DNA from: an uncultured Planctomycetales bacterium | Lineage (GTDB): Bacteria; Omnitrophota; Gorgyraeia; Zapsychrales; Fredricksoniimonadaceae | NCBI GenBank assembly: GCA_964572155.1 | Contig: CAZNDZ010000001.1 | Span: 648,840 to 712,839, forward strand | Direction: 5' to 3' | DNA: 64,000 bases | Part shown: piece by piece, positions 3,923 through 62,809 of the stretch | Layout: each line of letters begins with the position of its first letter | Position numbering within the stretch: position 1 is the first letter of the stretch | Made by a program: the position numbers and the translations under genes | The notes under the pieces: generated by a model | Database searches by the model: none | Told to the model about the DNA's origin: nothing | What the model saw: only the letters and a program-made list of their open reading frames with translations

Positions 3923-5365
3923 ATGAGAAATAAATTCATGTTAGCTTTAGCTGCGTTGATCTTCGTATCAGCACCAGCTTTCGCTGCAGTTCAAAACGTA
4001 AAAGTGTCCGGTGATATCGATACATGGGCTATCAACCGTGATAATTTCAACTTAGGCCAAAAAACTTTAACTGGTGCTGGTATTGCTAGCAACCCAGTTG
4101 GTTTAGAAAGCCAAAGTTTAGTCGCTACCCAAACCCGCATCAAGATCGAAGCGGATTTAAGCGATAACGTTTCTACAACGATTCGTTTATTAAATGAAAC
4201 TGCTTGGGGTAATGCAAACAGAATCATTGGTACCGGTGGTGGTACAGCGTCTGATGTTTCTTTAGATCAAGCTTATGCTACCTTACGTGAATTCTTATAT
4301 TCACCTTTAACTGTAAGCGTTGGTCGTCAAGACTTCGTTTATGGTAATGGTTTCATCTTAGGTGGTAATGGTCCTAACAATGTTGCTGTTAACACAGGTT
4401 TAAACAACATTGCTAAGGACTTAAGCAAAGATAACACGGTTAACGATGGTGTTAAGCTTATTTTCGATTACAAGCCATTAACATTAGATGTTATCTACTA
4501 CAAGAACAACCAACGTTTATTCACTGGTAATGCCATCTCAGATAAAACTACTTCTGATGTTTATGGTTTGAACGCAAATTACCAATTAGGTGATTCTAAG
4601 AATAGCGTTGTTGAAGGTTACTTATTCGCAAGAGTTGATGGTAACGATGTTACAACAACTGTTACAGAAAAAGGTGATACCTTATTCGTTCCTGGTTTGC
4701 GCGTTAGCACAAACCCTGTCAAAGGTTTAACCACATCAGCTGAAGTTGCATGGCAATTAGGCAACAAGACAGTCAATGCTGGTGGTGTTGACCAAGGTGA
4801 AAACCGCACCGCTTTCGCTTATCAATTGATGGCTAATTATGCAATTGAAAATGACAGCGTTGCTAAGTACAAACCAAGCGTTAGCGCTTCTTACACACAT
4901 ACTTCAGGTGATAAGAATGCTGGGGCTAACTCTGGCACAGATGATGTTAAGTCTGCAAAGAATTACTCAGCTTGGGATCCATTTGCTGAAGGTCAAAACG
5001 GAGGCACCATCTACAACTCCTTATTCTCCTTAAGCAACTTGAATATCTTATCTTTAGGCGCACAAGTTACTCCTATCGAAGATGTTGTTGCATCATTCGC
5101 ATGGAGTAATTTGATGGCTGATAAGAAATACCGTGGTGGCAATGCATTAGCCATCTCACAACCAGATAGTTCTACAGGTTTAACACCTGCAACTACTGGC
5201 AGCAAGGCATTAGGTAATGAATACGATGTTAATGTCAACTATGCTTACACTGAAGATGTAACCTTAGGTTTATCTTTAGGTTGGTTCGTTGCTGGTAATA
5301 CATTTACCGGTGCAAACGATTCAACAGCTAGCCAAGCGTTAGCTCATGTTAACGTTAATTTCTAA
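3923..5365 (+). CDS. outer-membrane beta-barrel porin-like protein
   Basis: Signal peptide MRNKFMLALAALIFVSAPAFA/AV; amphipathic beta-strand periodicity; C-terminal ...HVNVNF aromatic terminus typical of OMP barrels; GGAGG RBS at 3912-3916. Confidence 0.6.
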   Translation: MRNKFMLALAALIFVSAPAFAAVQNVKVSGDIDTWAINRDNFNLGQKTLTGAGIASNPVGLESQSLVATQTRIKIEADLSDNVSTTIRLLNETAWGNANRIIGTGGGTASDVSLDQAYATLREFLYSPLTVSVGRQDFVYGNGFILGGNGPNNVAVNTGLNNIAKDLSKDNTVNDGVKLIFDYKPLTLDVIYYKNNQRLFTGNAISDKTTSDVYGLNANYQLGDSKNSVVEGYLFARVDGNDVTTTVTEKGDTLFVPGLRVSTNPVKGLTTSAEVAWQLGNKTVNAGGVDQGENRTAFAYQLMANYAIENDSVAKYKPSVSASYTHTSGDKNAGANSGTDDVKSAKNYSAWDPFAEGQNGGTIYNSLFSLSNLNILSLGAQVTPIEDVVASFAWSNLMADKKYRGGNALAISQPDSSTGLTPATTGSKALGNEYDVNVNYAYTEDVTLGLSLGWFVAGNTFTGANDSTASQALAHVNVNF

Positions 5366-5392
5366 TTAGTTAGAAATCGTTAATTGTTTTGC

Positions 5393-5428
5393 AAAACCCC
5401 CGTCAGATTATGACGGGGGTTTTGTTTT
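5393..5428 (+). terminator. rho-independent terminator after porin gene
   Basis: AAAACCCCCGTC-agattatg-ACGGGGGTTTTGTTTT: GC-rich stem plus U-tract, read directly. Confidence 0.75.
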
Positions 5429-5580: not shown

Positions 5581-6156
5581 ATGACCCGTGATGAGATATA
5601 CGACCACCTTGCCAAGGTCTATTTAGGCAAGAAAGAAAACGTCGCCCAGAAACAGAAGAAACAGCAGGTTAACCAGTCATGGTTGGTGATCAATATTGTG
5701 ATCACAACAGTGATTGTGCTCTCGACGGTGTATGGCTTCACAGCTTTCTTATCTCGTCGAGCTGGGTTGCATAATCAGGTTTATTATGAATTAAATAATA
5801 ACCTGATTAAAGTTGGTTATGATTTAAATGATCCGTTTCCGTCGACAAAAACATTTGCAATCACGTTGCCGGAAAAAGATGCTAGTAAGTATAGCAAGTT
5901 AAATATGCGCATCCGTGGCCTTAACGGCGGGTATCCCGGTGTGGTTAAGTTAGTTGTGAATAATCAGCGTAATGAACGCGCAACGTATTACATCAAAGAT
6001 GTTGGGGCGCAATGGCAGAAGGTGGCTATCCCATTTGATAAATTGAATTTAAGTGACTGGAGCAATGTAACGGAAGTGGCTTTCGTTTTGGAAGCATGGA
6101 ACATGGATTTTAAGCAAGGCGCAATGCTCGTCGACGATGTTAGCTTTTCAAACTAA
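5581..6156 (+). CDS. membrane-anchored protein with C-terminal beta-sandwich carbohydrate-binding-module-like domain
   Basis: Basic N-terminal tail (KKENVAQKQKKQQ), one TM helix (WLVINIVITTVIVLSTVYGF), then about 120 aa ending ...AMLVDDVSFSN, reminiscent of galactose-binding-like/CBM folds (weak assignment). Confidence 0.35.
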   Translation: MTRDEIYDHLAKVYLGKKENVAQKQKKQQVNQSWLVINIVITTVIVLSTVYGFTAFLSRRAGLHNQVYYELNNNLIKVGYDLNDPFPSTKTFAITLPEKDASKYSKLNMRIRGLNGGYPGVVKLVVNNQRNERATYYIKDVGAQWQKVAIPFDKLNLSDWSNVTEVAFVLEAWNMDFKQGAMLVDDVSFSN

Positions 6157-6177
6157 GGACCTATAAGGAAAAAGAAT

Positions 6178-7413
6178 ATGAAAATAATCTCGATTGCAAA
6201 TCAAAAAGGTGGATGCGGTAAAACAACCACCGCCATTAACTTGGCCTCCGCGTTGGCATATCATGGGCAAAAAGTTTTGCTCATTGATCTAGATCCGCAA
6301 GCGCATGCCACGTTGGGTTTAAACATCGACGATGCTAACAGCCTTTATAATGTCATTTCTAAATTGACCCCACGCAAATTACGTATCAAAGATATTATCA
6401 CCCGCGCGGATAAAACATTTGATGTTGTGCCTTCTAACGTTTTGGTTGGTACATTGGAACAAGAATTAGCCGAAGAAATTGGACGTGAACTCAAATTGCT
6501 CGACGTGTTAAATGAAATCCGCGGTATTTATGATTACATTTTAATCGATTGTCCGCCATCGCTTGGTTTCTTGACAGTTAATGCGATCCGTGCAAGTAAT
6601 GAAGTGATTATTCCTGTTGAAACAAGCCGTTTCTCCATGCAAGGCGTTGATCACTTGCATGACATCATTTTCTTAATCCGTGACCGTTTAAATCATCCGG
6701 TTACAAGCAGAGTTCTCATCACCATGTTTGATTCTCGTTTGCGCCATTCATTTACCATGTTGGCGAAGATGAAAGATAAATTTGGTAAATTGCTTTATGA
6801 TACCATCGTCCATGTCAACGTGAAGCTCAAGGAAGCGGCTGTTATGGGTGAAGCGGTATTGAAATATGACAAATATTGCCGTGGATCAAAAGATTATTTA
6901 AGTTTAGGCCGCGAGATCTTGACCGACGATAAGGTGCTCTTAAAAGACGAGAGAGAGCAAAAAGTTAAAGCGCCAAGACCTGCCGTTGTGGTGGCCCAAG
7001 AACAAGTTGTTGAAGAAACAATCCATGAAGCAGAAAATGAACCCGTCGAAGAAGTCATTGCTAAGGCTGTGGCAGAAGCGATGGAAGAAACAAAAGAATA
7101 TCAACCATCTGAACGCATGCAAGAAATTGTCACCAAAGAAACCGCCGCGTTTGTTGGTTCTGCGTTATTTAAGTTAAATGCACCAAGCGCACAATCTGTG
7201 TTTGTGACAGGTTCATTTAATGATTGGTCGTTGGATGAATCTTGCCGCATGAAGAATATCGGTGGCGTTTGGACGTTGCAATTGCCGCTAAAGCCAGGGA
7301 TGTATAAATATCAATTCATCGTCGATGGTAAATGGCAAGAAGATCCAGAAAATAAATTGACCGAACGCAATTCTTTTGGGGATATTAACTCCTTGGTTGA
7401 GGTTCAAGGATAA
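6178..7413 (+). CDS. ParA/MinD-family P-loop ATPase fused to a C-terminal AMPK-beta-type glycogen-binding domain (CBM48)
   Basis: Deviant Walker A KGGCGKTTTAINLA and ParA-like body to about aa 250; acidic linker; C-terminal ...SVFVTGSFNDWSLDE...VWTLQLPLKPGMYKYQFIVDGKWQEDPEN... matches hallmark residues of the AMPK beta-subunit GBD/CBM48. Confidence 0.85.
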   Translation: MKIISIANQKGGCGKTTTAINLASALAYHGQKVLLIDLDPQAHATLGLNIDDANSLYNVISKLTPRKLRIKDIITRADKTFDVVPSNVLVGTLEQELAEEIGRELKLLDVLNEIRGIYDYILIDCPPSLGFLTVNAIRASNEVIIPVETSRFSMQGVDHLHDIIFLIRDRLNHPVTSRVLITMFDSRLRHSFTMLAKMKDKFGKLLYDTIVHVNVKLKEAAVMGEAVLKYDKYCRGSKDYLSLGREILTDDKVLLKDEREQKVKAPRPAVVVAQEQVVEETIHEAENEPVEEVIAKAVAEAMEETKEYQPSERMQEIVTKETAAFVGSALFKLNAPSAQSVFVTGSFNDWSLDESCRMKNIGGVWTLQLPLKPGMYKYQFIVDGKWQEDPENKLTERNSFGDINSLVEVQG

Positions 7414-7739
7414 TGTCGCATAGTAACAAGCCGTTTTTTAAAGAAGATATCATGGACGGCAAAATGTATGCGGTATTAGCGTATCTCTCAATCCTTTGCA
7501 TCATCCCACTTATCTTAAAGAAGAAGAATCCATTCGTCTTAGCTCATGGCAAGCAAGGCTTGGTGCTTTTTGTGGCCCAAGTCGGCGTGCTTATTTTATC
7601 TATTGTTTTGCCGTGGTGTTTTGGTCCGTTGATGTTTGTGCTCATGGTCTTTTCTTTCTGGGGTATGATTGCTGTTATCCGTGGTGACATGGTTGATCTA
7701 CCCATCGTTGCAGGCATCTCCCAAAAAATCGATTTATAA
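7413..7739 (+). CDS. DUF4870-like small integral membrane protein
   Basis: ...MYAVLAYLSILCIIPLI...NPFVLAHGKQGLVLF... pattern characteristic of DUF4870; about 3 TM segments. Confidence 0.45.
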   Translation: MSHSNKPFFKEDIMDGKMYAVLAYLSILCIIPLILKKKNPFVLAHGKQGLVLFVAQVGVLILSIVLPWCFGPLMFVLMVFSFWGMIAVIRGDMVDLPIVAGISQKIDL

Positions 7740-7742
7740 CTT

Positions 7743-8228
7743 ATGTTTAAAAAAATCGTTGATGTCCTCAAAGAGGTTTTTTGGTTAAAAAAATCTAAAC
7801 GGCAATCCACACGCAAGGTTGCAGCTAAAACCACTAAAAAAACCACGAAGAAATCAGCTAAGAAGCCCACCAAGCCGCTTAAAGTTGTAAAACCAGCCAA
7901 ACCATTAAAAGAAAAGAAGGCGCCGGAAAAAGCCGCGCCAGCCCCTAAAGTTGTTAAGCCAAAAAAAAGTGATTTAGATCCAGCATTAAAGCCGATGGGT
8001 GAGATCACGCATTATTTTGATCGCATTAAGGTTGCGGTATTGAAAATAAATCAGGGGACAGTGCTCATTGGTGATAAATTAACCGTGGTAACGCCAAAAT
8101 ATAAGTTTGTTCAAAAGATTTGGTCCATGCAAATTGAGAGTCAAGATGTGAAGGTGGCCAAGAAGGGGCAGTTAATCGGGATTAAGATTGATAAGGCAGT
8201 CGCTGCCGGCGACATTGTGTATAAATAG
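7743..8228 (+). CDS. lysine-rich histone-H1-like protein with C-terminal small beta-barrel-like domain
   Basis: N-terminal half K/A/P/T-rich (KTTKKTTKKSAKKPTKPLKVVKPAKPLKEKKAPEKAAPAPKVVKPKK); C-terminal about 80 aa ...GTVLIGDKLTVV...GQLIGIKID...GDIVYK. Confidence 0.45.
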   Translation: MFKKIVDVLKEVFWLKKSKRQSTRKVAAKTTKKTTKKSAKKPTKPLKVVKPAKPLKEKKAPEKAAPAPKVVKPKKSDLDPALKPMGEITHYFDRIKVAVLKINQGTVLIGDKLTVVTPKYKFVQKIWSMQIESQDVKVAKKGQLIGIKIDKAVAAGDIVYK

Positions 8229-8249
8229 GATATGTGGTATATTTTGCAT

Positions 8250-8423
8250 ATGAATAAACGCGCTCAAAACACCATAGAATATCTTTTGTTAGTTGTCGCT
8301 ATGATTACCGTTATGATTATCTTCTTGGCACCAAATGGTAAATATCAGAAAGGTATGCAAAATACCTTGAATCAAGTAACTACCGATGCTATCGCTAAAG
8401 CCAATTCAGAAATCCTTTTTTAA
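8250..8423 (+). CDS. Flp/Fap-like type IVb pilin candidate (class III signal-peptide-like)
   Basis: Basic leader MNKRAQNT then IEYLLLVVAMITVMIIFLA (Flp-motif-like T-x-IEY plus hydrophobic helix); an in-frame upstream ATG at 8232 is an alternative start. Confidence 0.3.
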   Translation: MNKRAQNTIEYLLLVVAMITVMIIFLAPNGKYQKGMQNTLNQVTTDAIAKANSEILF

Positions 8424-47370: not shown

Positions 47371-49959
47371 ATGACCTATACCAAATCTAAAATATTAGCT
47401 CTCATCCTTCTAACGACATTTGCAAGTGCGTCAGTGTCTGTGCCTCGTGCACAGGCAGGAGAAATGACGGTGCCGCTCATGCCTAAAGCAGGGGCCATGG
47501 TTCAATTAAGCCAAGCTTTTACACCCGCACAGTTAAAGGGGATTGTTGTTCATCCAAATCAGCCGCTGCAATTTGATTTCTTGATTGGTCAAGGTGACGG
47601 CCAATTAAGCACAGAAGAAAAAAGCCAAGAATATAACACACTCATCAAATACTTTTTAGCGTCCCTAGCTGTTGCGGATAAAGACCAATGGGTGAACCTT
47701 TCGCCATATGAGCATAATCGTATTATTGAAGAAAATTTCGGCAAGACCATCATGGGGCGGGATCTTTTAGCCCAAGATTACCTGCTTAAACAAATCATGT
47801 CCTCGTTGATGTACCCTGAATCAGGATTGGGAAAAACATTTTGGGACAAGGTCTATGAGAAGGCCGGCAATGCGAATGTCCCCATCAATGCTTTTAACAA
47901 AGTTTGGATCATGCCGGATCAAGCTGTCATCCATGAGAATGGGAATACTGCTGTTATCGTAAAGAGTCATTTGAAGGTGATGTTAGAAGAAGACTACCTT
48001 GCTAAAGCAAAAAATACTACGGACACCATGCCATCGGCAACCAAAGAAATGATGCGCAACATTTTATTGCCGGAACTTGAACGGGAAGTTAATGAGGGAA
48101 AGAATTTTGCAAGCCTACGCCAAGTATTTTCAGGGATGATATTAGCAACGTGGTATAAGCGTGCATTAAAGGATTCGCTCTTGGGTCAAGTGTATGCCGA
48201 TAAGGCTAAGGTTAAGGGCATCGATCAGCCTGCTTGCCGGCAGGCAGGAACTAAGTGTGATGCAAATGAAGAGATTTACCAAGAATATCTGCAGGCTTTT
48301 AAGAAGGGCGTTTTTAATTACATCAAAGAAGATCAACAATCCATTCCCCGCAAATATTTTGCCGGCGGTATCACAGGTCTAGGCAATTTATCCCTCGATA
48401 CAAAACAAGTCAATCGCGCCATGATATCCGCAGATGTTGCCGGGACAGAAGCCGTTACCACACAATTTGATGCCGCGATGGATGTAGATCCAATTGCGAA
48501 AAAGCTGATCATTTTCAACGAAAGTATTCCGTCCTTTGACATAAAAGATCCAAAACTAAAGTATCTGACGTGGTTAATGGCTGAGGATATCGAGAAAGAC
48601 AATGGCTGGCAACGCACATATCACGCCATGGACAATCAAACATTAAGCCAAGAATTTCAGTCGTTTATCGACAGCGGTGTTTTTCAAGAACCATTTTTAA
48701 GTTCAAAGAATATGAGTCCCGAGGGCATTATTGCATTCTTAGATGCATTATCACGTCGTTACGGTGCTGTGGAGCTCGATGTTAAAGACTTAACCGAAGA
48801 CTTTATCGGCAATAGTTTATGGCTTGGACTAGAAGGTTTTGCTGCAGCCAGTGTTCGCAAAGATAAGGATCTCCATGAATCCATGGTCAAAGCCAAGGCG
48901 TGGGTGCGAGAAGTTTTTATCCGTGCAGGTTTGAATGATGCCGCGATGACGCCGGAACAGTATGTGCAAGATTTTAGACGGTTTTTAGATAGGATGGGGT
49001 CGTTAAGAGAAGAAGAGAAAGTGCATGCGGTTAACTTATTAAAAATGATTTCACATCTTCATGATCCAAGATATAGATTCGAGAATAGTATAGAATATGC
49101 TGCAGATCTAAATTTTTATATTCTTAGAATCCGAGCCGAAAAGAATCTAAAAGTGTTGCAGGCCATTGGTGCATATTTCACAGCTGAAAAGCGAAGCATT
49201 TTTGTTCCGGCGATATTTGAAGCTATCCACGATAAAATTACTAAATTATCCAAACCAGAAGCGACAATAGATTTTGATGAAGGAGTGCTTAAATTAGCAA
49301 AGTTGCATCTCCCAGACAGCTTAGGGTATCAACGGGTTGAGTTATTAGCAAATGAAAGAGTCATTGTTAATTTACAAGATGTTGCAGAGCAAAGAGATGG
49401 CGTTCTATTTAACATCAATTCGGTGTTTCGACATAAACCGTTTACCATTGAGATCATGAAAAGAAAAAGTACTAATGCATTAGGTTATGATCTTGTTTTT
49501 GTTGGGACATATGATGGCAGGACGAGTGATTTTATTATTCAGAATAATACACGTAAAGGCGTTGTTCCTATTCCTTATAGAAGTATTTTAAAAGGAAACA
49601 TGTTTGTATTAGGTCTTGATGTATTTGGCAAACAATTTGATTTTTCAAATGTTATTGTTGAAAGCGTGAAGCCATCAGAATTAAGCTCGATCTATGTTTT
49701 GTACAAACCAAAACCAAAGTATTTACCGCTATCGAAATCAGCTCTACCATATGATCAAGCAATGGCTACTGTTGCTCAAAGTGATGTGGGGGGTATTGAT
49801 TTGAACTCTGGTAACTTGGATTTGCAGATTAAGCGGGATGGGAATGGGGTGGTTATGCCATTGGTAGAGCAGGACTTAGTGCAGTTGTCCCGTATTGAAG
49901 GGCTTGTGCCTCGGATTATAGCGATTAAGCCAGCGTCTAGCTTGCCAGAGCTGCAGTAA
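47371..49959 (+). CDS. large secreted protein of unrecognised family (paralog A, 862 aa)
   Basis: Signal peptide ...ASASVSVPRAQA/GE; its N-terminal roughly 330 aa and C-terminal roughly 60 aa are clearly homologous to the ORF at 59744-62809. Confidence 0.6.
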   Translation: MTYTKSKILALILLTTFASASVSVPRAQAGEMTVPLMPKAGAMVQLSQAFTPAQLKGIVVHPNQPLQFDFLIGQGDGQLSTEEKSQEYNTLIKYFLASLAVADKDQWVNLSPYEHNRIIEENFGKTIMGRDLLAQDYLLKQIMSSLMYPESGLGKTFWDKVYEKAGNANVPINAFNKVWIMPDQAVIHENGNTAVIVKSHLKVMLEEDYLAKAKNTTDTMPSATKEMMRNILLPELEREVNEGKNFASLRQVFSGMILATWYKRALKDSLLGQVYADKAKVKGIDQPACRQAGTKCDANEEIYQEYLQAFKKGVFNYIKEDQQSIPRKYFAGGITGLGNLSLDTKQVNRAMISADVAGTEAVTTQFDAAMDVDPIAKKLIIFNESIPSFDIKDPKLKYLTWLMAEDIEKDNGWQRTYHAMDNQTLSQEFQSFIDSGVFQEPFLSSKNMSPEGIIAFLDALSRRYGAVELDVKDLTEDFIGNSLWLGLEGFAAASVRKDKDLHESMVKAKAWVREVFIRAGLNDAAMTPEQYVQDFRRFLDRMGSLREEEKVHAVNLLKMISHLHDPRYRFENSIEYAADLNFYILRIRAEKNLKVLQAIGAYFTAEKRSIFVPAIFEAIHDKITKLSKPEATIDFDEGVLKLAKLHLPDSLGYQRVELLANERVIVNLQDVAEQRDGVLFNINSVFRHKPFTIEIMKRKSTNALGYDLVFVGTYDGRTSDFIIQNNTRKGVVPIPYRSILKGNMFVLGLDVFGKQFDFSNVIVESVKPSELSSIYVLYKPKPKYLPLSKSALPYDQAMATVAQSDVGGIDLNSGNLDLQIKRDGNGVVMPLVEQDLVQLSRIEGLVPRIIAIKPASSLPELQ

Positions 49960-59743: not shown

Positions 59744-62700
59744 ATGCAGAAAGCCCTTTTTAGCCTTATTTTAGTTAGTTTCTTATCCTCAACAATTTCG
59801 CTTCCAGCTGCACGAGCACAGGTGGTTTTACCTCAGATGCCGGCGCCTGGGACTATGGTTGACGTAACGCCTGCGTTTACACCAGCCTACTTAAAAGGTC
59901 TTGTCATTCATCCTGAATATCCGCTGCAATTTGATTTTCTCGTCCATCGTGGGCAAGGAAATTTAAGTGATTCACAAAAAAATCAAGAATACTCAAAGCT
60001 CATCAAGTATTTTCTAACCGCATTAACCATCTCAGAAAAAGATCAATGGGTGAATTTAAGTCCTTATGAAAAAGAGCGCATCATCCCAGACACATTCGGC
60101 CAGACGCAAATGGGGCAGGACCTGTTAGCTCAAGATTATATGCTCAAGCAGTTGTCCGCGAGCTTGCTTTATCCTGAAGGGGAAGCTGGTAAGCGATTTT
60201 GGTCGAGTATTTATGCATCTGCTAAAAAGCATGGCGGGCTAAATGTGCCTCTTAATGCCTTTAATAAAGTATGGATTGTCCCAGACAAAGCTGTGCTGTA
60301 TGAAAAAGGCAACACCGTTTATGTTTTAGAAAATCATTTGAAGGTGATGTTGGAGGAAGATTATTTAGCTAAGGGTAAGAATAAAATAAAATCTTCTAAT
60401 ACGAATTCTGAAATCATTAAACAAATCATCCTTCCTGAAATTGAAAAAGAAATCAATACCGGCAAAAATTTCGCAGCCTTGCGTCAAGTATATAGCGGCA
60501 TGTTGTTGGCGACCTGGTATAAACGCGCGTTAAAAGAATCATTATTAAACAAGGTTTATGCTAATCAAGCCAAAGTGCAAGGCGTTGATGCTAATCCAGA
60601 AAACAATCAAGCGATCTACGCGCAGTATTTGCAGGCTTTTAAAAAAGGCGCATTTAATTTGATCAAAGACACAGACGAGATGGGCGTGTCTGGTCCAAGG
60701 AAATATTTTGCAGGTGGGACAAAATCATACGATCCTAATAAAATTATTGTCTTAAAAAAGATAGATAGTGCGATGGCAGAGGGAGTTAATGATGAAGAAG
60801 AAAATGTAGATATAGCCCACGTTCGACTAGGATCACAAACAAATGGCTCAGTTCAAAGCATTTATCGGTTTCGAGATGCTAGTCCGTATAAACGAATTGC
60901 TAGAAAAGTAGGAATGGTGCCACGTATAAAGGTAAGTAAAGGTGCTGAAGCTACGGGGGCAGTCTCAGAAGCAAGATTGCCGGATATTGTTTTAGAGCAA
61001 TCAGTTCCAAAGAAGATATTGCAGCGTTCAAATCAACATGCTATCAGAGCAAAGCTAAGAAAGATTATACAAATAAGAGAAAAGATTTCGGAAGGGCTTG
61101 ATTTATACATGTCGAATACTGGAGATATGGGATTTGTGTTGGGAGTAAATTATGAGGTTGAGAAAAACAAAGGCTGGATTTTCCAAGATGAGTACAGAAA
61201 AATGAATGGATTAGCCGGGTGGGGGTTGTTTTCAAAGATGATGTATAAGAATAATTTAACCAATACATTACCTGGGGCGCAAAGCATTCAATTAAATCCT
61301 ATCACAGAGTCGCAAATGCGCATAGTTTTAGGCGCTGTTAAATATAAGCGTTATTGGGATATTATTGAACCATATTTGCCTAATGAGGATTTTGATGCTG
61401 AGCTTGAGATTTATCAGTTTTTAGCCAATGACATTGGTTTAACACTCGGTACTTATAACGAAGATTATCCTGCGCCTTCAAGAGTTAAGCAGAAAACAAC
61501 ATATTATTTGAAAGATGCGTTAAATATTTCAAAAGATGAGTTAGAAGCAAAAATGCTTACAACATTACTCAATTTGGAATGGTTTTTACAACAAGATGCC
61601 GCTATGTCTTCGCGAAGAGAATTTCTATCAAGAGTGTGGCTTGCTGTCTTGGCAGCAACTGGGGCGATCAATTCTACGGGAAATTCTGAATATAGGGAAT
61701 TGGTTGGTAATGTTGGGATGACATTTCGATTTATTGAGCGCAATTTTCGAAGTCCTTACCCAGATCCTGTTGTTGCTCGGGCTAGTTTTTTAGAGAAGAT
61801 GGCTATCTTGCATGAAAAGAGTGTGGATATTGAAGTTAGTCTAGAGAAACTCTCAAAAATAATTAAAGGAAAGCTCTTCAAAGAAACTAGGCAAGGGGCA
61901 ATGGAATATTTGCTTGAGACCAGAGAAATGTTATTGCTTCGAGAATATAGACTATTAGATAATTTATTATTGAGTAATCCTCGACAAAATGCTGTTTTGG
62001 TTAGAGAGCGTGCATATGAAATTTTAAATAATGTTCCAATGCCAGCCTATATTCAGGAAGAATATAAAGCCTTGATTAAGAAGACAATTAATGATTCTGC
62101 TCAAGCATCTATTGAAAATAGATTTCAACGATATGCCGACATTGGAAAGTTGTTTGAGGGGAATCCGGAGGTTTTAAAGAAGGGATGGTGGGTGGCTTTT
62201 GATTTGGATAGAACGAAGGATATTGTAGGGGATGAGCGTCAGATACAAATGGTTAGATTATTGAATAAGGTTTTGATTGATCATGTTGGTCAAGATGTGC
62301 AATTTTTTTCTACCTGGCGTGTGGATATTCATTTTCAAAAGGAAGAAGGTTTTATGTATATTCCCTCGTCACTAAAAAAGGGGCAATTGTCTGCGTTATT
62401 AGATGATATACGTTTAGCATTTAAGACATTATCAAAAGGTCAAACAGTCACATTTGCAGCACTGCCTGCCAGACAAGTCGGTTTGATCAAAGCGAATCAT
62501 AAGCAGCTGTTTAATATTGTGGGGCCAGATAAGATGGATGAAATTTTCTTTTCTACATTAAGAGAATCAAAGGGCAAACGCGATGTAGCAAGGACTGACA
62601 CATATGGGGATAAGACAGTTTTTGTTCCTAAGGGGGGTATTGATATGAACCCAGATGGATTAGAGCTTGAGATTAAGCGGGATCAAACGATAAAGATGTC

Positions 62701-62809
62701 TCAGATGAATGTTAGTTCCATTGATTTAGGCCAGATTCAAGGGTTTGTACCACGCATTTTATCCATCGTTCCCGCCTCGGAAACGTCGGTTTTTAGCAGT
62801 TTGCAATAA
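59744..62809 (+). CDS. large secreted protein of unrecognised family (paralog B, 1021 aa)
   Basis: Signal peptide ...ISLPAARAQ/VV; N-terminal roughly 330 aa align closely with the 47371-49959 protein (PLQFDFL, DQWVNLSPYE, LLAQDY, NAFNKVWI.PD.AV, LKVMLEEDYLAKxKN, FAALRQV.SGM.LATWYKRALK); shared C-terminal ...GFVPRIL.I.PAS... motif. Confidence 0.6.
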   Translation: MQKALFSLILVSFLSSTISLPAARAQVVLPQMPAPGTMVDVTPAFTPAYLKGLVIHPEYPLQFDFLVHRGQGNLSDSQKNQEYSKLIKYFLTALTISEKDQWVNLSPYEKERIIPDTFGQTQMGQDLLAQDYMLKQLSASLLYPEGEAGKRFWSSIYASAKKHGGLNVPLNAFNKVWIVPDKAVLYEKGNTVYVLENHLKVMLEEDYLAKGKNKIKSSNTNSEIIKQIILPEIEKEINTGKNFAALRQVYSGMLLATWYKRALKESLLNKVYANQAKVQGVDANPENNQAIYAQYLQAFKKGAFNLIKDTDEMGVSGPRKYFAGGTKSYDPNKIIVLKKIDSAMAEGVNDEEENVDIAHVRLGSQTNGSVQSIYRFRDASPYKRIARKVGMVPRIKVSKGAEATGAVSEARLPDIVLEQSVPKKILQRSNQHAIRAKLRKIIQIREKISEGLDLYMSNTGDMGFVLGVNYEVEKNKGWIFQDEYRKMNGLAGWGLFSKMMYKNNLTNTLPGAQSIQLNPITESQMRIVLGAVKYKRYWDIIEPYLPNEDFDAELEIYQFLANDIGLTLGTYNEDYPAPSRVKQKTTYYLKDALNISKDELEAKMLTTLLNLEWFLQQDAAMSSRREFLSRVWLAVLAATGAINSTGNSEYRELVGNVGMTFRFIERNFRSPYPDPVVARASFLEKMAILHEKSVDIEVSLEKLSKIIKGKLFKETRQGAMEYLLETREMLLLREYRLLDNLLLSNPRQNAVLVRERAYEILNNVPMPAYIQEEYKALIKKTINDSAQASIENRFQRYADIGKLFEGNPEVLKKGWWVAFDLDRTKDIVGDERQIQMVRLLNKVLIDHVGQDVQFFSTWRVDIHFQKEEGFMYIPSSLKKGQLSALLDDIRLAFKTLSKGQTVTFAALPARQVGLIKANHKQLFNIVGPDKMDEIFFSTLRESKGKRDVARTDTYGDKTVFVPKGGIDMNPDGLELEIKRDQTIKMSQMNVSSIDLGQIQGFVPRILSIVPASETSVFSSLQ

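Follow-up and report, generated by a model that had tools for sequence, protein, structure and literature searches.

We found that an open reading frame at positions 6178 to 7413 of the window (the whole stretch of DNA analyzed, 64,000 nucleotides) encodes a ParA/Soj-like ATPase followed by a disordered linker and a C-terminal AMPK-β/CBM48 domain. This ParA-CBM48 fusion represents an undescribed family present in at least eight bacterial phyla. We propose that it is one half of a two-component system that uses ATP to tether glycogen granules to the nucleoid and to distribute them on it, with the cargo adaptor built into the ATPase itself. We regard the case for this proposal as evenly balanced. 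New here are also the genes beside the fusion: in Omnitrophota, the neighbor encodes the membrane protein UP191, and in other phyla, it usually encodes a degenerate ParA-like protein headed by an LGRGL peptide.

The ParA-CBM48 fusion is real and ancient

The fusion is no artefact. It is found at full length in more than 120 Omnitrophota clusters, across which identity is 66 to 87%, and it recurs at 30 to 40% identity in at least seven further phylum-level lineages (Planctomycetota, Thermodesulfobacteriota, Myxococcota, Gammaproteobacteria, Rokubacteriota, Krumholzibacteriia, and Auribacterota). An earlier interpretation of this DNA, made from the letters alone (here called the sequence-only reading), had treated the gene as a fusion, to be checked against an assembly or frameshift artefact, and this distribution bears it out. 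A word-indexed search for homologues of the tail by itself gave short fragments only. Two of these, on long contigs, had the look of natural split genes, but we rejected them as evidence for a split form because both are frameshift artefacts in error-rich assemblies. In an NJ tree, all of the fusions fell into a clade with KGGCGKT and His43 as its signatures, separate from the KGGVGKT Soj proteins. As the sequence-only reading had supposed, no description of a ParA-CBM48 fusion or system turned up in the literature that we searched. Proteins of the fusion family and of the partner family are currently labeled “AAA family ATPase,” “chromosome partitioning protein,” or “hypothetical.”

The ATPase body conserves the catalytic and partner-binding residues of ParA

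To Pfam profiles, the ATPase body matched AAA_31 at 182 bits (cut-off, 27) and CbiA at 67.8 bits (cut-off, 25.4). Its match to PDB entry 8RAY had an E value of 9e-49, and a Foldseek search with the full-length model returned Soj/ParA proteins as the best matches. It scored below the cut-offs of the profiles NF041546 ParA_partition (106 bits; cut-off, 180) and minD_bact (57.6 bits; cut-off, 212.9). The Walker A motif of the window protein reads NQKGGCGKTT and has the signature lysine of a deviant Walker A.

Residue conservation was counted over 49 family members, all of which carry the KGGCGKT Walker A. We found that K10, C13, K15, D37, D39, and D124 are invariant in the alignment (49/49); the three aspartates are those of Walker A′ and Walker B. 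The 411-aa product thus contains the complete deviant-Walker-A ParA body that had been read from it. R187, which corresponds to the DNA-binding arginine R189 of BsSoj, is retained in 44 of the 49 members, and the flanking basic residues K216 and K218 are lysine or arginine in 45 and 46, respectively. Y57, the equivalent of Y81 in Myxococcus xanthus ParA, is tyrosine in 43 members and phenylalanine in 3 more. The residue beside it is D, N, or E in 47/49; E94 is conserved in 47/49 and E96 in 20/49. The M. xanthus Y81/E117-type pocket, which receives an arginine of ParB, therefore has a conserved equivalent in the fusion family. From these residues and the partner peptide described below, we predict that the fusion ATPase dimerizes, binds DNA, and hydrolyzes ATP when stimulated by its partner.

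The C-terminal tail is an AMPK-β-type CBM48

CBM48 is a module for α-glucans, the storage glucans. The sequence-only reading had assigned the C-terminal ~80 aa to CBM48 and the AMPK glycogen-binding domain, and the profile check agreed, with scores above the curated Pfam cut-offs: 56.6 bits for AMPK1_CBM (cut-off, 26.8) and 33.5 bits for CBM_48 (cut-off, 22.4). In the PDB, the tail matched 1Z0N and 4Y0G at an E value of 5e-9 with ~35 to 40% identity. We found that W350 and W386, the equivalents of the sugar-stacking W100 and W133 of rat AMPK β1, are invariant (49/49). G401 is conserved in 48/49 members, and N404 (N150 in AMPK) is asparagine in 37 and aspartate in 11 of 49. The position of F400 (L146) is aromatic or hydrophobic, and the equivalent of T148 is variable. 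Position 379, which corresponds to AMPK K126, is arginine in 32 members, lysine in 11, and glutamine in 6, the last being the residue in the window's clade. The sugar-binding Trp/Lys positions foreseen by the sequence-only reading are thus present as far as both tryptophans are concerned, and the lysine has been replaced in the clade of the window. In AMPK β1, W100 and W133 are required for glycogen binding, and substitutions of K126 lower it (PMC2642990). A single AMPK CBM binds cyclodextrin weakly, with a KD of ~0.3 mM (quoted in PMC2642990).

An AF2 model placed six β-strands across residues 329 to 409, with a pLDDT of 80 to 89 for residues 330 to 384 and low confidence for the sugar loop (residues 385 to 403). 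The full-length model is poor (pLDDT, 60), and the top 50 Foldseek matches of the whole model were solely to P-loop proteins; the assignment of the CBM fold therefore rests on sequence evidence. An exhaustive representative search with the tail found that its closest relatives are pure tandem CBM48/CBM53/X25 proteins, which shows that the module belongs to α-glucan-binding sequence space. Because multi-repeat CBM48 proteins swamped this search, ParA fusions could not be counted from it. We predict that the CBM48 tail binds glycogen.

The linker between the two domains has a pLDDT below 50 at residues 252 to 307. Its length across the family ranges from 21 to 245 aa (median, 43). A segment at about residues 308 to 328 is conserved within Omnitrophota and is modeled as a helix.

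UP191 is the most likely partner in Omnitrophota

The UP191 gene adjoins the fusion on its upstream side in all 15 of the Omnitrophota loci. Residues 1 to 19 of UP191 are MTRDEIYDHLAKVYLGKKE. In 37 UP191 sequences, which are otherwise ~65 to 70% identical, the N-terminal 18 residues are near-invariant, and M1, R3, E5, I6, Y7, L10, A11, V13, Y14, L15, G16, and K17 are strictly so. Residues 3 to 14 are modeled as a helix by AF2. The transmembrane stretch holds an invariant GFTAFL and is flanked by six lysines on its N-terminal side and two arginines on its C-terminal side, which suggests an N-in topology by the positive-inside rule. The C-terminal β-sandwich is probably periplasmic, and contact with cytoplasmic glycogen is therefore unlikely. 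What the sequence-only reading saw as a membrane-anchored protein with a CBM-like sandwich does have the transmembrane helix; the sandwich, a putative jelly roll, resembles β-glucan-type CBMs and CIA30 and not starch-binding modules. We consider UP191 the most likely partner of the fusion ATPase in Omnitrophota and its N-terminal helix a putative ParA-binding or ParA-activating peptide.

The window genes around the fusion are listed in Table 1. The intrinsic terminator downstream of the porin gene sets the 5′ limit of the UP191-led transcription unit. Because of this terminator, we rejected the porin as a member of the operon; it forms a transcription unit of its own. It lies upstream in 10 loci in the synteny comparison and is a syntenic neighbor, probably outside the ParA-CBM48 system. 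On the other side, the start of DN108 overlaps the ParA-CBM48 stop codon by one base, and DN108 is kept immediately 3′ of the fusion gene in nine Omnitrophota loci. DN161 is kept in 13 loci, with the β-barrel as its conserved portion; it gave weak, sub-threshold matches to GTP_EFTU_D4/D2 and PDB matches only around an E value of ~1. It is possible that DN161 is a nucleoid-associated component. Among the genes scanned in the 64-kb window, we found no glg genes, no ParB, and no bcs genes. The wider neighborhoods of the window and of locus L081 contain ftsK, rodZ, and pnp.

Table 1. Features of the ParA-CBM48 locus, in window coordinates
Feature	Position	Strand	Description
Alginate_exp-type outer-membrane porin	3923..5365	+	Pfam 48.7 bits
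Intrinsic terminator	5391..5425	+	15-bp G+C-rich stem followed by T-run; 3′ of porin gene
UP191	5581..6156	+	191-aa bitopic membrane protein; candidate ATPase partner/activator in Omnitrophota
UP191 residues 1-19	5581..5637	+	Near-invariant N-terminal amphipathic helix
UP191 transmembrane helix, residues 32-61	5674..5763	+	AF2 helix and hydrophobic stretch
UP191 C-terminal β-sandwich, residues 69-190	5785..6150	+	Putative CBM11/CBM8/CBM30/CIA30-like jelly roll
ParA/Soj-like ATPase body, residues 1-250	6178..6927	+	KGGCGKT deviant Walker A; AAA_31, 8RAY, Foldseek
Flexible acidic linker, residues 251-328	6928..7161	+	Low pLDDT, variable alignment
AMPK-β-type CBM48, residues 329-411, and stop codon	7162..7413	+	AMPK1_CBM, CBM_48, 1Z0N/4Y0G
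DN108	7413..7739	+	Small polytopic membrane protein; weak, sub-threshold DUF4870/MamF_MmsF-family match
DN161	7743..8228	+	Lys-rich, histone-H1-like disordered N-terminal half and ~75-aa EF-Tu-domain-2-like β-barrel

Putative partner genes in other phyla usually begin with a ParB-type peptide

Outside Omnitrophota, the gene adjacent to the fusion usually encodes a degenerate ParA-like protein that starts with a ParB-type LGRGL peptide. The N termini of these proteins are LGRGLEDVSHLFLS-type peptides, and adjacent genes of the LGRGL...SHxFLS type were present in loci L020, L022, L023, L026, L032, L035, and L036 and in L040, L042, L043, L044, L053, and L057. The peptides match the motif LG[RK]GL[SD]AL, which we took from genuine ParB genes in canonical loci; in the contrast set of canonical loci (L058 to L080), ParB lies directly downstream. 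Of the 48 adjacent ORFs, 20 carried the strict motif, against 0 of 1,486 other ORFs. With a peptide HMM, the top four held-out matches all directly adjoined a ParA gene. The bodies of the partner proteins form one degenerate, MinD-like P-loop family. The LGRGL start of these neighbors therefore gives strong indirect support to the idea of an activating peptide. A Pfam census of 204 neighbors in 35 non-cassette loci revealed no recurrent ParB, and we rejected a canonical ParAB reading for this reason. In the same 35 loci, no MinC/E or FtsZ-related genes recurred beside the fusion.

By eye, the UP191 peptide looks similar to YDALADLFLG and SHLFLS, which are partner peptides from other phyla. HMMs of either set did not retrieve the other, and we therefore treat homology between the UP191 and LGRGL peptides as a hypothesis only. 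The sequence-only reading had likened the basic N-terminal tail of UP191 to that of ParB. The LGRGL neighbors speak for this likeness, but the conserved part of the tail is the MTRDEIYDHLAKVYLGKR helix and not the variable Lys-rich stretch. Likewise, its pairing of the ATPase with a membrane CBM-like protein holds throughout the 15 Omnitrophota loci but is specific to that phylum, the partner elsewhere being the degenerate ParA-like protein.

Glycogen genes adjoin the fusion in some loci

Genes of glycogen metabolism lie close to the fusion in several places. A GH57 gene is located between the porin gene and UP191 in L007 to L011 and in L013. In L033, a GH77 MalQ, a GH57/DUF3536 protein, and glycogen phosphorylase are encoded near the fusion, and in L022, there are a stand-alone CBM48 gene and a gene for a GH57 protein that is branching-enzyme-like and has a BE_C domain. 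Most non-Omnitrophota loci have unrelated neighbors, so the glycogen context amounts to about three independent neighborhoods and two phosphoglucomutases. There was no general glycogen-gene neighborhood in the census of 204 neighbors in 35 non-cassette loci, and the idea that the fusion is always in a glg operon was rejected on these grounds. Omnitrophota MAGs do encode glycogen synthesis (PMC8542988).

A model for glycogen granule tethering

According to our model, the ATP-bound ParA body would dimerize and use its conserved Soj-type basic residues for non-specific binding to nucleoid DNA. Each dimer would present two CBM48 domains on flexible linkers. Each domain would bind α-1,4/1,6-glucan weakly, but avidity would let many nucleoid-bound dimers together keep hold of a multivalent glycogen particle. 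The ParB-like N-terminal peptide of the partner would then enter the pocket at the dimer edge, increase ATP hydrolysis, and release the ATPase; the proposed tether would therefore be dynamic. In Omnitrophota, the invariant helix of UP191 would face the cytoplasm from the inner membrane and act as the partner, and in other phyla, the degenerate ParA-like protein beginning with LGRGL would do so.

In E. coli, glycogen shows polar exclusion and asymmetric inheritance and can displace the chromosome (PMC4836754). Tethering of the kind proposed would instead keep the granules on the nucleoid and spread them along it. Both daughters would therefore inherit reserves, and the chromosome would not be displaced.

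A broader claim, which we make more tentatively, is that polysaccharide constitutes a third kind of ParA/MinD matrix or cargo and that the family is a widely distributed, active “glycogen partition system.” An ATP-switched dimer would clamp glycogen via CBM48, much as MinD uses its amphipathic helix on the membrane, and would bridge the particles to the nucleoid. The reset of the cycle would come from a ParB-mimicking LGRGL peptide on a pseudo-ATPase. Omnitrophota would carry that peptide on a membrane protein whose periplasmic domain is glycan-binding-like, and this may provide a trans-envelope connection.

Alternatives to the tethering model

The fusion could instead sense glycogen status. 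CBM48 would report the amount or branching of glycogen, the binding of which would sequester or allosterically modulate the Soj-like ATPase, and the output would be chromosome organization, replication control, or division-site placement (MipZ/PomZ-like), coupling the cell cycle to reserves. Consistently with this, the tail is closest to the CBM of AMPK β, a regulatory glycogen sensor, and the body is nearest to chromosomal ParA/Soj, with its DNA- and partner-binding sites kept. The level of conservation across Omnitrophota also suggests a core cell-cycle role, and ftsK, rodZ, and pnp are found in the wider neighborhood. However, the fusion clade stands apart from canonical Soj, and neither ParB nor MinC/E or FtsZ-related genes recur beside it in the 35 loci of the census. 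The linker is long and variable, which favors tethering over allosteric contact. We therefore consider a sensor unlikely.

Ranked after it, and improbable as well, is a role for glycogen as the matrix. CBM48 would take the part of the C-terminal membrane-targeting helix of MinD, ATP-driven dimerization would double its valency and bring the ATPase onto the granule surface, and the LGRGL partner would switch the ATPase off. Proteins such as glycogen enzymes or the pseudo-ATPase partner would be organized on the granules, and in Omnitrophota the granules could be docked to the inner membrane via UP191 instead of being positioned on DNA. As in MinD, the surface-binding module is C-terminal; the weak affinity of a single CBM makes dimer-dependent avidity plausible, and the partner in many phyla is a MinD-like degenerate P-loop protein. 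UP191 is membrane anchored, and GH57 enzymes are adjacent. This reading leaves the conserved Soj-type DNA-binding residues without an explanation, though, and we know of no enzyme-recruitment motif.

It is very unlikely that the ATPase is an envelope organizer of the BcsQ/TadZ type, which would localize a trans-envelope glycan export or uptake apparatus made up of the porin, UP191 with its periplasmic CBM-like domain, and DN108 while CBM48 bound a cytoplasmic glucan intermediate. Between the porin and the operon, which has no glycosyltransferase or synthase, lies a strong terminator, and CBM48 is a storage-glucan module. The fusion is also found without these membrane genes, in seven other phylum-level lineages. 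Although Pfam CBP_BcsQ matched the ATPase at 44 bits, the scores against NCBIfam BcsQ TIGR03371 (69.9 bits; cut-off, 157.85) and PRK10037 (28; cut-off, 399) fell short.

Least probable of all is that the CBM48-like domain was exapted for protein-protein contact, binds no sugar, and has a protein complex as its cargo: the Ig-like E-set fold has such precedents in the AMPK CBM-kinase contact and the T9SS plug protein (to which the same region has a weak NCBIfam match), and the K126 equivalent is glutamine in the window's clade, but about eight phyla share the stacking tryptophan pair, the loop glycine, and the Asn/Asp position, repeat proteins that bind starch or glycogen are the closest relatives, and glycogen enzymes adjoin the fusion in some loci.

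Significance and comparison with known systems

The known cargos of ParA/MinD proteins are DNA or protein assemblies, namely, chromosomes, plasmids, divisome regulators, carboxysomes, chemoreceptor arrays, flagella, and conjugation machines. Glycogen is the commonest carbon reserve, and to our knowledge its distribution in bacteria is essentially unstudied. Glycogen, polysaccharide, and granules do not figure as cargo in a 2024 review of the ParA/MinD family. The tethering system that we propose would probably be the first ParA system with a polysaccharide storage granule as its cargo. A conserved ATPase that carries a glycogen-binding module and is accompanied by a ParB-like partner peptide offers a concrete molecular handle on glycogen distribution. 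If the model is correct, the protein is a natural fusion of a ParA with its own cargo adaptor, which would be useful for Brownian-ratchet models and for the engineering of granules and compartments. Two groups so far unannotated also emerge: a ParA clade (KGGCGKT) and a partner family (LGRGL peptide with a degenerate P-loop).

Like the fusion, BcsQ is a ParA/MinD-family protein functionally tied to a polysaccharide. BcsQ, which lacks a CBM, works on a membrane synthase complex, whereas the fusion misses the NCBIfam BcsQ cut-offs and has no bcs genes with it in the window. PhaM is closer in concept: it attaches PHB granules to the nucleoid and thereby distributes them to both daughters, as we propose for glycogen. 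Unlike the fusion, however, PhaM is no ATPase, and what it binds is the PHB synthase and not the polymer; we know of no sequence relationship between PhaM and the fusion ATPase. MinD shares with the fusion a deviant Walker A dimerizing ATPase and a C-terminal surface-binding element whose avidity dimerization would raise, as well as (as proposed for the fusion) a partner whose N-terminal peptide switches the ATPase off. In the fusion, the surface element is instead a folded glucan-binding domain of 80 aa, which a long linker joins to a Soj-like body, and there is no MinC/MinE. The CBM48 of AMPK/SNF1 β is the best match of the tail in both structure and sequence, and the equivalents of W100, W133, the L146 loop, and N150 are kept; here, the domain sits on a bacterial P-loop ATPase and not on a kinase scaffold, without the ADaM site or a kinase context.

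In sequence and fold, the nearest relative is chromosomal ParABS (8RAY, 6IUB, and 1WCV). The two share the DNA-binding arginine and the tyrosine pocket that receives the ParB peptide, and the partners of the fusion start with an LG[RK]GL core, as ParB does. In contrast to ParABS, the fusion has no adjacent ParB/parS, forms a separate clade, and carries an extra linker and CBM48. Its candidate partner is not a CTPase/HTH ParB: in Omnitrophota it is a membrane protein, and elsewhere it is a degenerate P-loop protein. Furthermore, standard ParA systems have the activator on the cargo, whereas here the ATPase itself would bind the cargo and UP191 is membrane bound.

McdA/McdB, like the fusion, is built on an orphan ParA-type ATPase without ParB/parS; it positions a bulky cytoplasmic inclusion (presumed for the fusion), with the nucleoid as the presumed matrix and a lineage-variable partner that activates the ATPase. 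The McdA structures 6NON and 6NOO were among the PDB matches of the fusion ATPase, although the similarity to McdA (48 bits) is lower than that to chromosomal ParA (170 bits). Unlike McdA, the fusion retains the signature lysine in its Walker A, has a family-specific cysteine there (KGGCGKT), and is accompanied by a partner with a ParB-type LGRGL peptide. Cargo recognition is supplied by the partner in McdA/McdB and is carried by CBM48 within the ATPase in the fusion. The cargo of McdA/McdB is a protein shell, and that of the fusion would be a polysaccharide.

An Omnitrophota locus encodes a Soj-like ATPase with a CBM48 tail

The sequence-only reading had proposed a ParA ATPase fused to an AMPK/CBM48-type tail (ParA-CBM48), with a membrane protein gene (UP191) upstream, and we recovered both ORFs at the claimed coordinates (see table). 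Pfam searches likewise found the claimed complete ParA body (AAA_31, residues 1 to 173, 182 bits; CbiA also matched) and, in the tail, both AMPK1_CBM (residues 337 to 410, 56.6 bits against a cut-off of 26.8) and CBM_48 (residues 330 to 386, 33.5 bits against 22.4). The best PDB match of the ATPase body was chromosomal ParA/Soj (M. xanthus ParA, 8RAY, E = 9e-49), followed by H. pylori and T. thermophilus Soj. The tail matched crystal structures of the AMPK beta1/beta2 carbohydrate-binding modules (E of about 5e-9) and then pullulanase and GlgB CBM48s. AF2 models the linker as disordered; its length varies from 21 to 245 residues among family members. A search of the 411-aa product found no curated NCBIfam model covering the fusion architecture.

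We found the full architecture in at least 120 protein clusters (66 to 87% identity, 100% coverage), the named ones being Candidatus Omnitrophota. Among species-representative genomes, a single continuous ORF spanned residues 1 to 410 in Omnitrophota (45 to 70% identity) and, at 30 to 40% identity, in Planctomycetota (Phycisphaerae, Sedimentisphaerales, Tepidisphaerales, and Pirellulales-labelled MAGs), Thermodesulfobacteriota/'Deltaproteobacteria', Myxococcota, Gammaproteobacteria (Thiogranum), Rokubacteriota, Krumholzibacteriia, and Auribacterota. The concern that two ORFs had been joined artificially is thus removed by one continuous ORF across many lineages. Naturally split ParA/CBM48 genes were rejected, as the only apparent cases sit on contigs with many other frameshifted genes. 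We conclude that the fusion is genuine and ancient.

In an NJ tree, the fusions grouped with a few tail-less KGGCGKT proteins, apart from canonical KGGVGKT Soj. KGGCGKT-type ParAs that lack CBM48 and have short disordered or basic tails occur at eight of the homologous loci (L037, L048, L052 to L055, L063, and L079). Because they exist, the Cys-Walker-A clade is broader than the fusion; they may use other cargo-binding tails.

Catalytic residues and two sugar-stacking tryptophans are conserved

We counted conservation in an alignment of 49 members drawn from all carrier lineages. The signature lysine K10, the P-loop lysine K15, the Walker A' and B aspartates (D37, D39, and D124), the family-specific Walker A cysteine (KGGCGKT), and the tail tryptophans equivalent to rat AMPK beta1 W100 and W133 were invariant. 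The CBM loop glycine was kept in 48 members, and the N150 equivalent was N or D in 48. At the K126 equivalent we found R in 32, K in 11, and Q in 6, with Q in the window's clade. In AMPK, W100, K126, W133, L146, and T148 contact sugar, and mutants bind glycogen less (PMC2642990). The equivalent of the DNA-binding R189 of B. subtilis Soj was present in 44/49, and two nearby positions were K or R in >90%. In the partner pocket, 43/49 kept the tyrosine equivalent to M. xanthus ParA Y81, which receives the ParB arginine (PMC12462528).

The closest non-fusion relatives of the tail were proteins made solely of 3 to 18 tandem CBM48/CBM53/X25-like modules. Many bacterial proteins consist of AMPK1_CBM/CBM48 tandem modules alone (P0300 to P0447 in our representative search, e.g., P0313, P0316, P0309, and P0306), including a recurrent four-module class of about 480 aa and very large members of 1,812 and 6,207 aa. 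A role in multivalent binding of glycogen or starch is possible.

The fusion lies in a conserved cassette and, in places, beside glucan genes

The window is ordinary chromosome, with pstB-phoU, nuoF, a porin, the ParA-CBM48 locus, an RHS toxin, a T2SS/T4P cluster, pnp, ftsK, rodZ, miaB, nucleotide-sugar genes, and rib genes. A profile scan of its genes found neither a glg gene nor parB. Downstream of a terminator, UP191, ParA-CBM48, the small genes DN108 and DN161, and more small genes form a tightly packed unit. This cassette is conserved across Omnitrophota, with UP191 immediately upstream of the fusion in 15/15 loci. DN108 homologues weakly match PF09685, a family that goes by the names DUF4870 and MamF_MmsF (magnetosome membrane proteins). 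DN161, a conserved member of the cassette, may associate with the nucleoid. The syntenic contig L081 reads pstB-phoU-porin-UP191-ParA-DN108 ... rpsO-pnp-ftsK; relative to it, the window has a large extra block holding the RHS gene and small ORFs, then a lower-GC stretch and the T2SS/T4P cluster (secretin, GspE, GspF, and PilM/N).

Features of the window and of homologous loci (L numbers)
Feature	Position	Strand	Description
Terminator	5391-5425		Strong; separates porin from UP191 unit
UP191	5581-6156	+	191 aa, membrane protein, candidate partner
ParA-CBM48	6178-7413	+	411 aa
DN108	7413-7739		Small membrane protein; start overlaps ParA-CBM48 stop by one base
DN161	7743-8228		N-terminal half histone-H1-like, Lys/Ala/Pro-rich; conserved ~75-aa EF-Tu-domain-2-like beta-barrel
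63-aa ORF	8232-8423		Directly 3' of DN161; weak Class III signal peptide and Flp/Fap pilin matches
Extra block	9394-32652		Relative to L081
RHS/YD-repeat toxin	9394-15834		2,146 aa; start of extra block; small ORFs after
Lower-GC stretch	16-24 kb		GC 0.34-0.38
Large ORF	47371-49959		862 aa; no Pfam family at E <= 1e-4
Large ORF	59744-62809		1,021 aa; no Pfam family at E <= 1e-4
GH57 beside the cassette	L008:5780-7375		
Partner-family gene	L022:4476-5459		
Partner-family gene	L026:9089-9946		
Partner-family gene	L035:9094-9984		
Partner-family gene	L036:9179-10033		
Partner-family gene	L042:9100-9957		
Partner-family gene	L053:8900-9817		

A link between the fusion and alpha-glucan metabolism came from three neighbourhoods. 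In L007 to L011 and L013, UP191 is directly preceded by a GH57 gene; GH77 MalQ, GH57/DUF3536, and glycogen phosphorylase abut the fusion in L033; and in L022 the fusion has as neighbours a CBM48 that stands alone and a GH57 gene that resembles branching enzymes and has the BE_C domain. Elsewhere the neighbours were mixed, two phosphoglucomutases among them, and our census of these other loci found no recurrent ParB. Glycogen synthesis is commonly encoded in Omnitrophota MAGs (PMC8542988). The GH57 beside the cassette in L008 (homologues in L007, L009 to L011, and L013) matched recently deposited GH57 structures (9JLQ, 8ZYI, 9IHT, and others; E of about 1e-81) and not the classical GH57 branching enzymes.

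A ParB-like peptide marks the adjacent gene in other phyla

Our main new finding is that, in carriers other than Omnitrophota, the gene that directly follows the fusion usually carries a shared N-terminal peptide: KKLGRGLEDFSHLFLS (L022), KRLGRGLADVSHVFLS (L026), PLGRGLEDVSHLFLS (L040), VRNLREISHFFLS (L032), KKRDLSEISHLFLS (L020), MPRDLSEVLHYFMP (L035), and MTRNLSDVLDYFLP (L042). In three Planctomycetota loci it is (E)YDALADLFLG. The LG[RK]GL core is identical to that of genuine ParB N termini from canonical soj-parB loci (e.g., ALGRGLSALL and RLGKGLDALI) and agrees with how the ParA-binding motif has been described in the literature, as a hydrophobic stretch broken by a single basic residue. 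A strict pattern, drawn up post hoc and missing about a dozen obvious variants, matched an adjacent ORF in 20/48 loci and 0/1,486 other ORFs. An HMM built from ten partner peptides ranked four held-out genes at the top, all of them immediate neighbours of a ParA gene. The partner bodies belong to a single family, ParA/MinD-like in fold and with a degraded Walker A. All three tests support the specificity of the peptide to ParA neighbours. This family (LGRGL...SHxFLS peptide plus the degenerate fold) is unannotated, and its genes, those in the table among others, lie directly downstream of KGGCGKT ParAs, including the L053 ParA without CBM48.

A positioning model and its alternatives

The best-supported model, to which we give about an even chance from sequence comparison, is a two-component system of ParA type in which the ATPase contains its own cargo adaptor. 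In the ATP-bound state, ParA-CBM48 dimers would attach to the nucleoid and hold glycogen particles by avidity through their paired CBM48 tails, and the ParB-like peptide of the partner would promote ATP hydrolysis and turnover. The outcome would be glycogen granules retained on the nucleoid and spread along it. Glycogen in E. coli is excluded to the poles, builds up at the old ones, and is able to push the chromosome aside (PMC4836754), which makes a need for granule positioning plausible. The main weaknesses of the model are the Gln at the K126 equivalent in the window's clade, the absence of a glg gene from the window, a glycogen context in just about three independent neighbourhoods, and an unusual geometry in which the ATPase rather than the activator binds cargo.

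It is unlikely that the fusion is instead a glycogen-status sensor modulating a Soj-like cell-cycle ATPase. Less probable again is that glycogen is the matrix for a MinD-like on/off cycle, with enzymes organised or granules docked to the membrane. We doubt strongly that the protein organises an envelope glycan machine in the manner of BcsQ, and loss of sugar binding by the CBM-like domain is the least credible reading.

Comparison with known systems

Because no ParB was found beside it, because it branches apart from canonical Soj, and because it misses the equivalog cut-offs, we ruled out that the fusion is a canonical ParABS Soj. BcsQ and MinD identities were both rejected. Glycogen, polysaccharide, or granule cargo is absent from a 2024 review of the ParA/MinD family (PMC11407121). 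Our full-text literature search found no description of a ParA-CBM48 protein, as the sequence-only reading had supposed, and papers beyond the searched collection are possible. Functionally, the closest system is McdAB-type organelle positioning. ParA-CBM48 departs from McdAB in three ways: the ATPase itself carries the adaptor, its cargo is presumed to be a polysaccharide, and its partner imitates the peptide of ParB.
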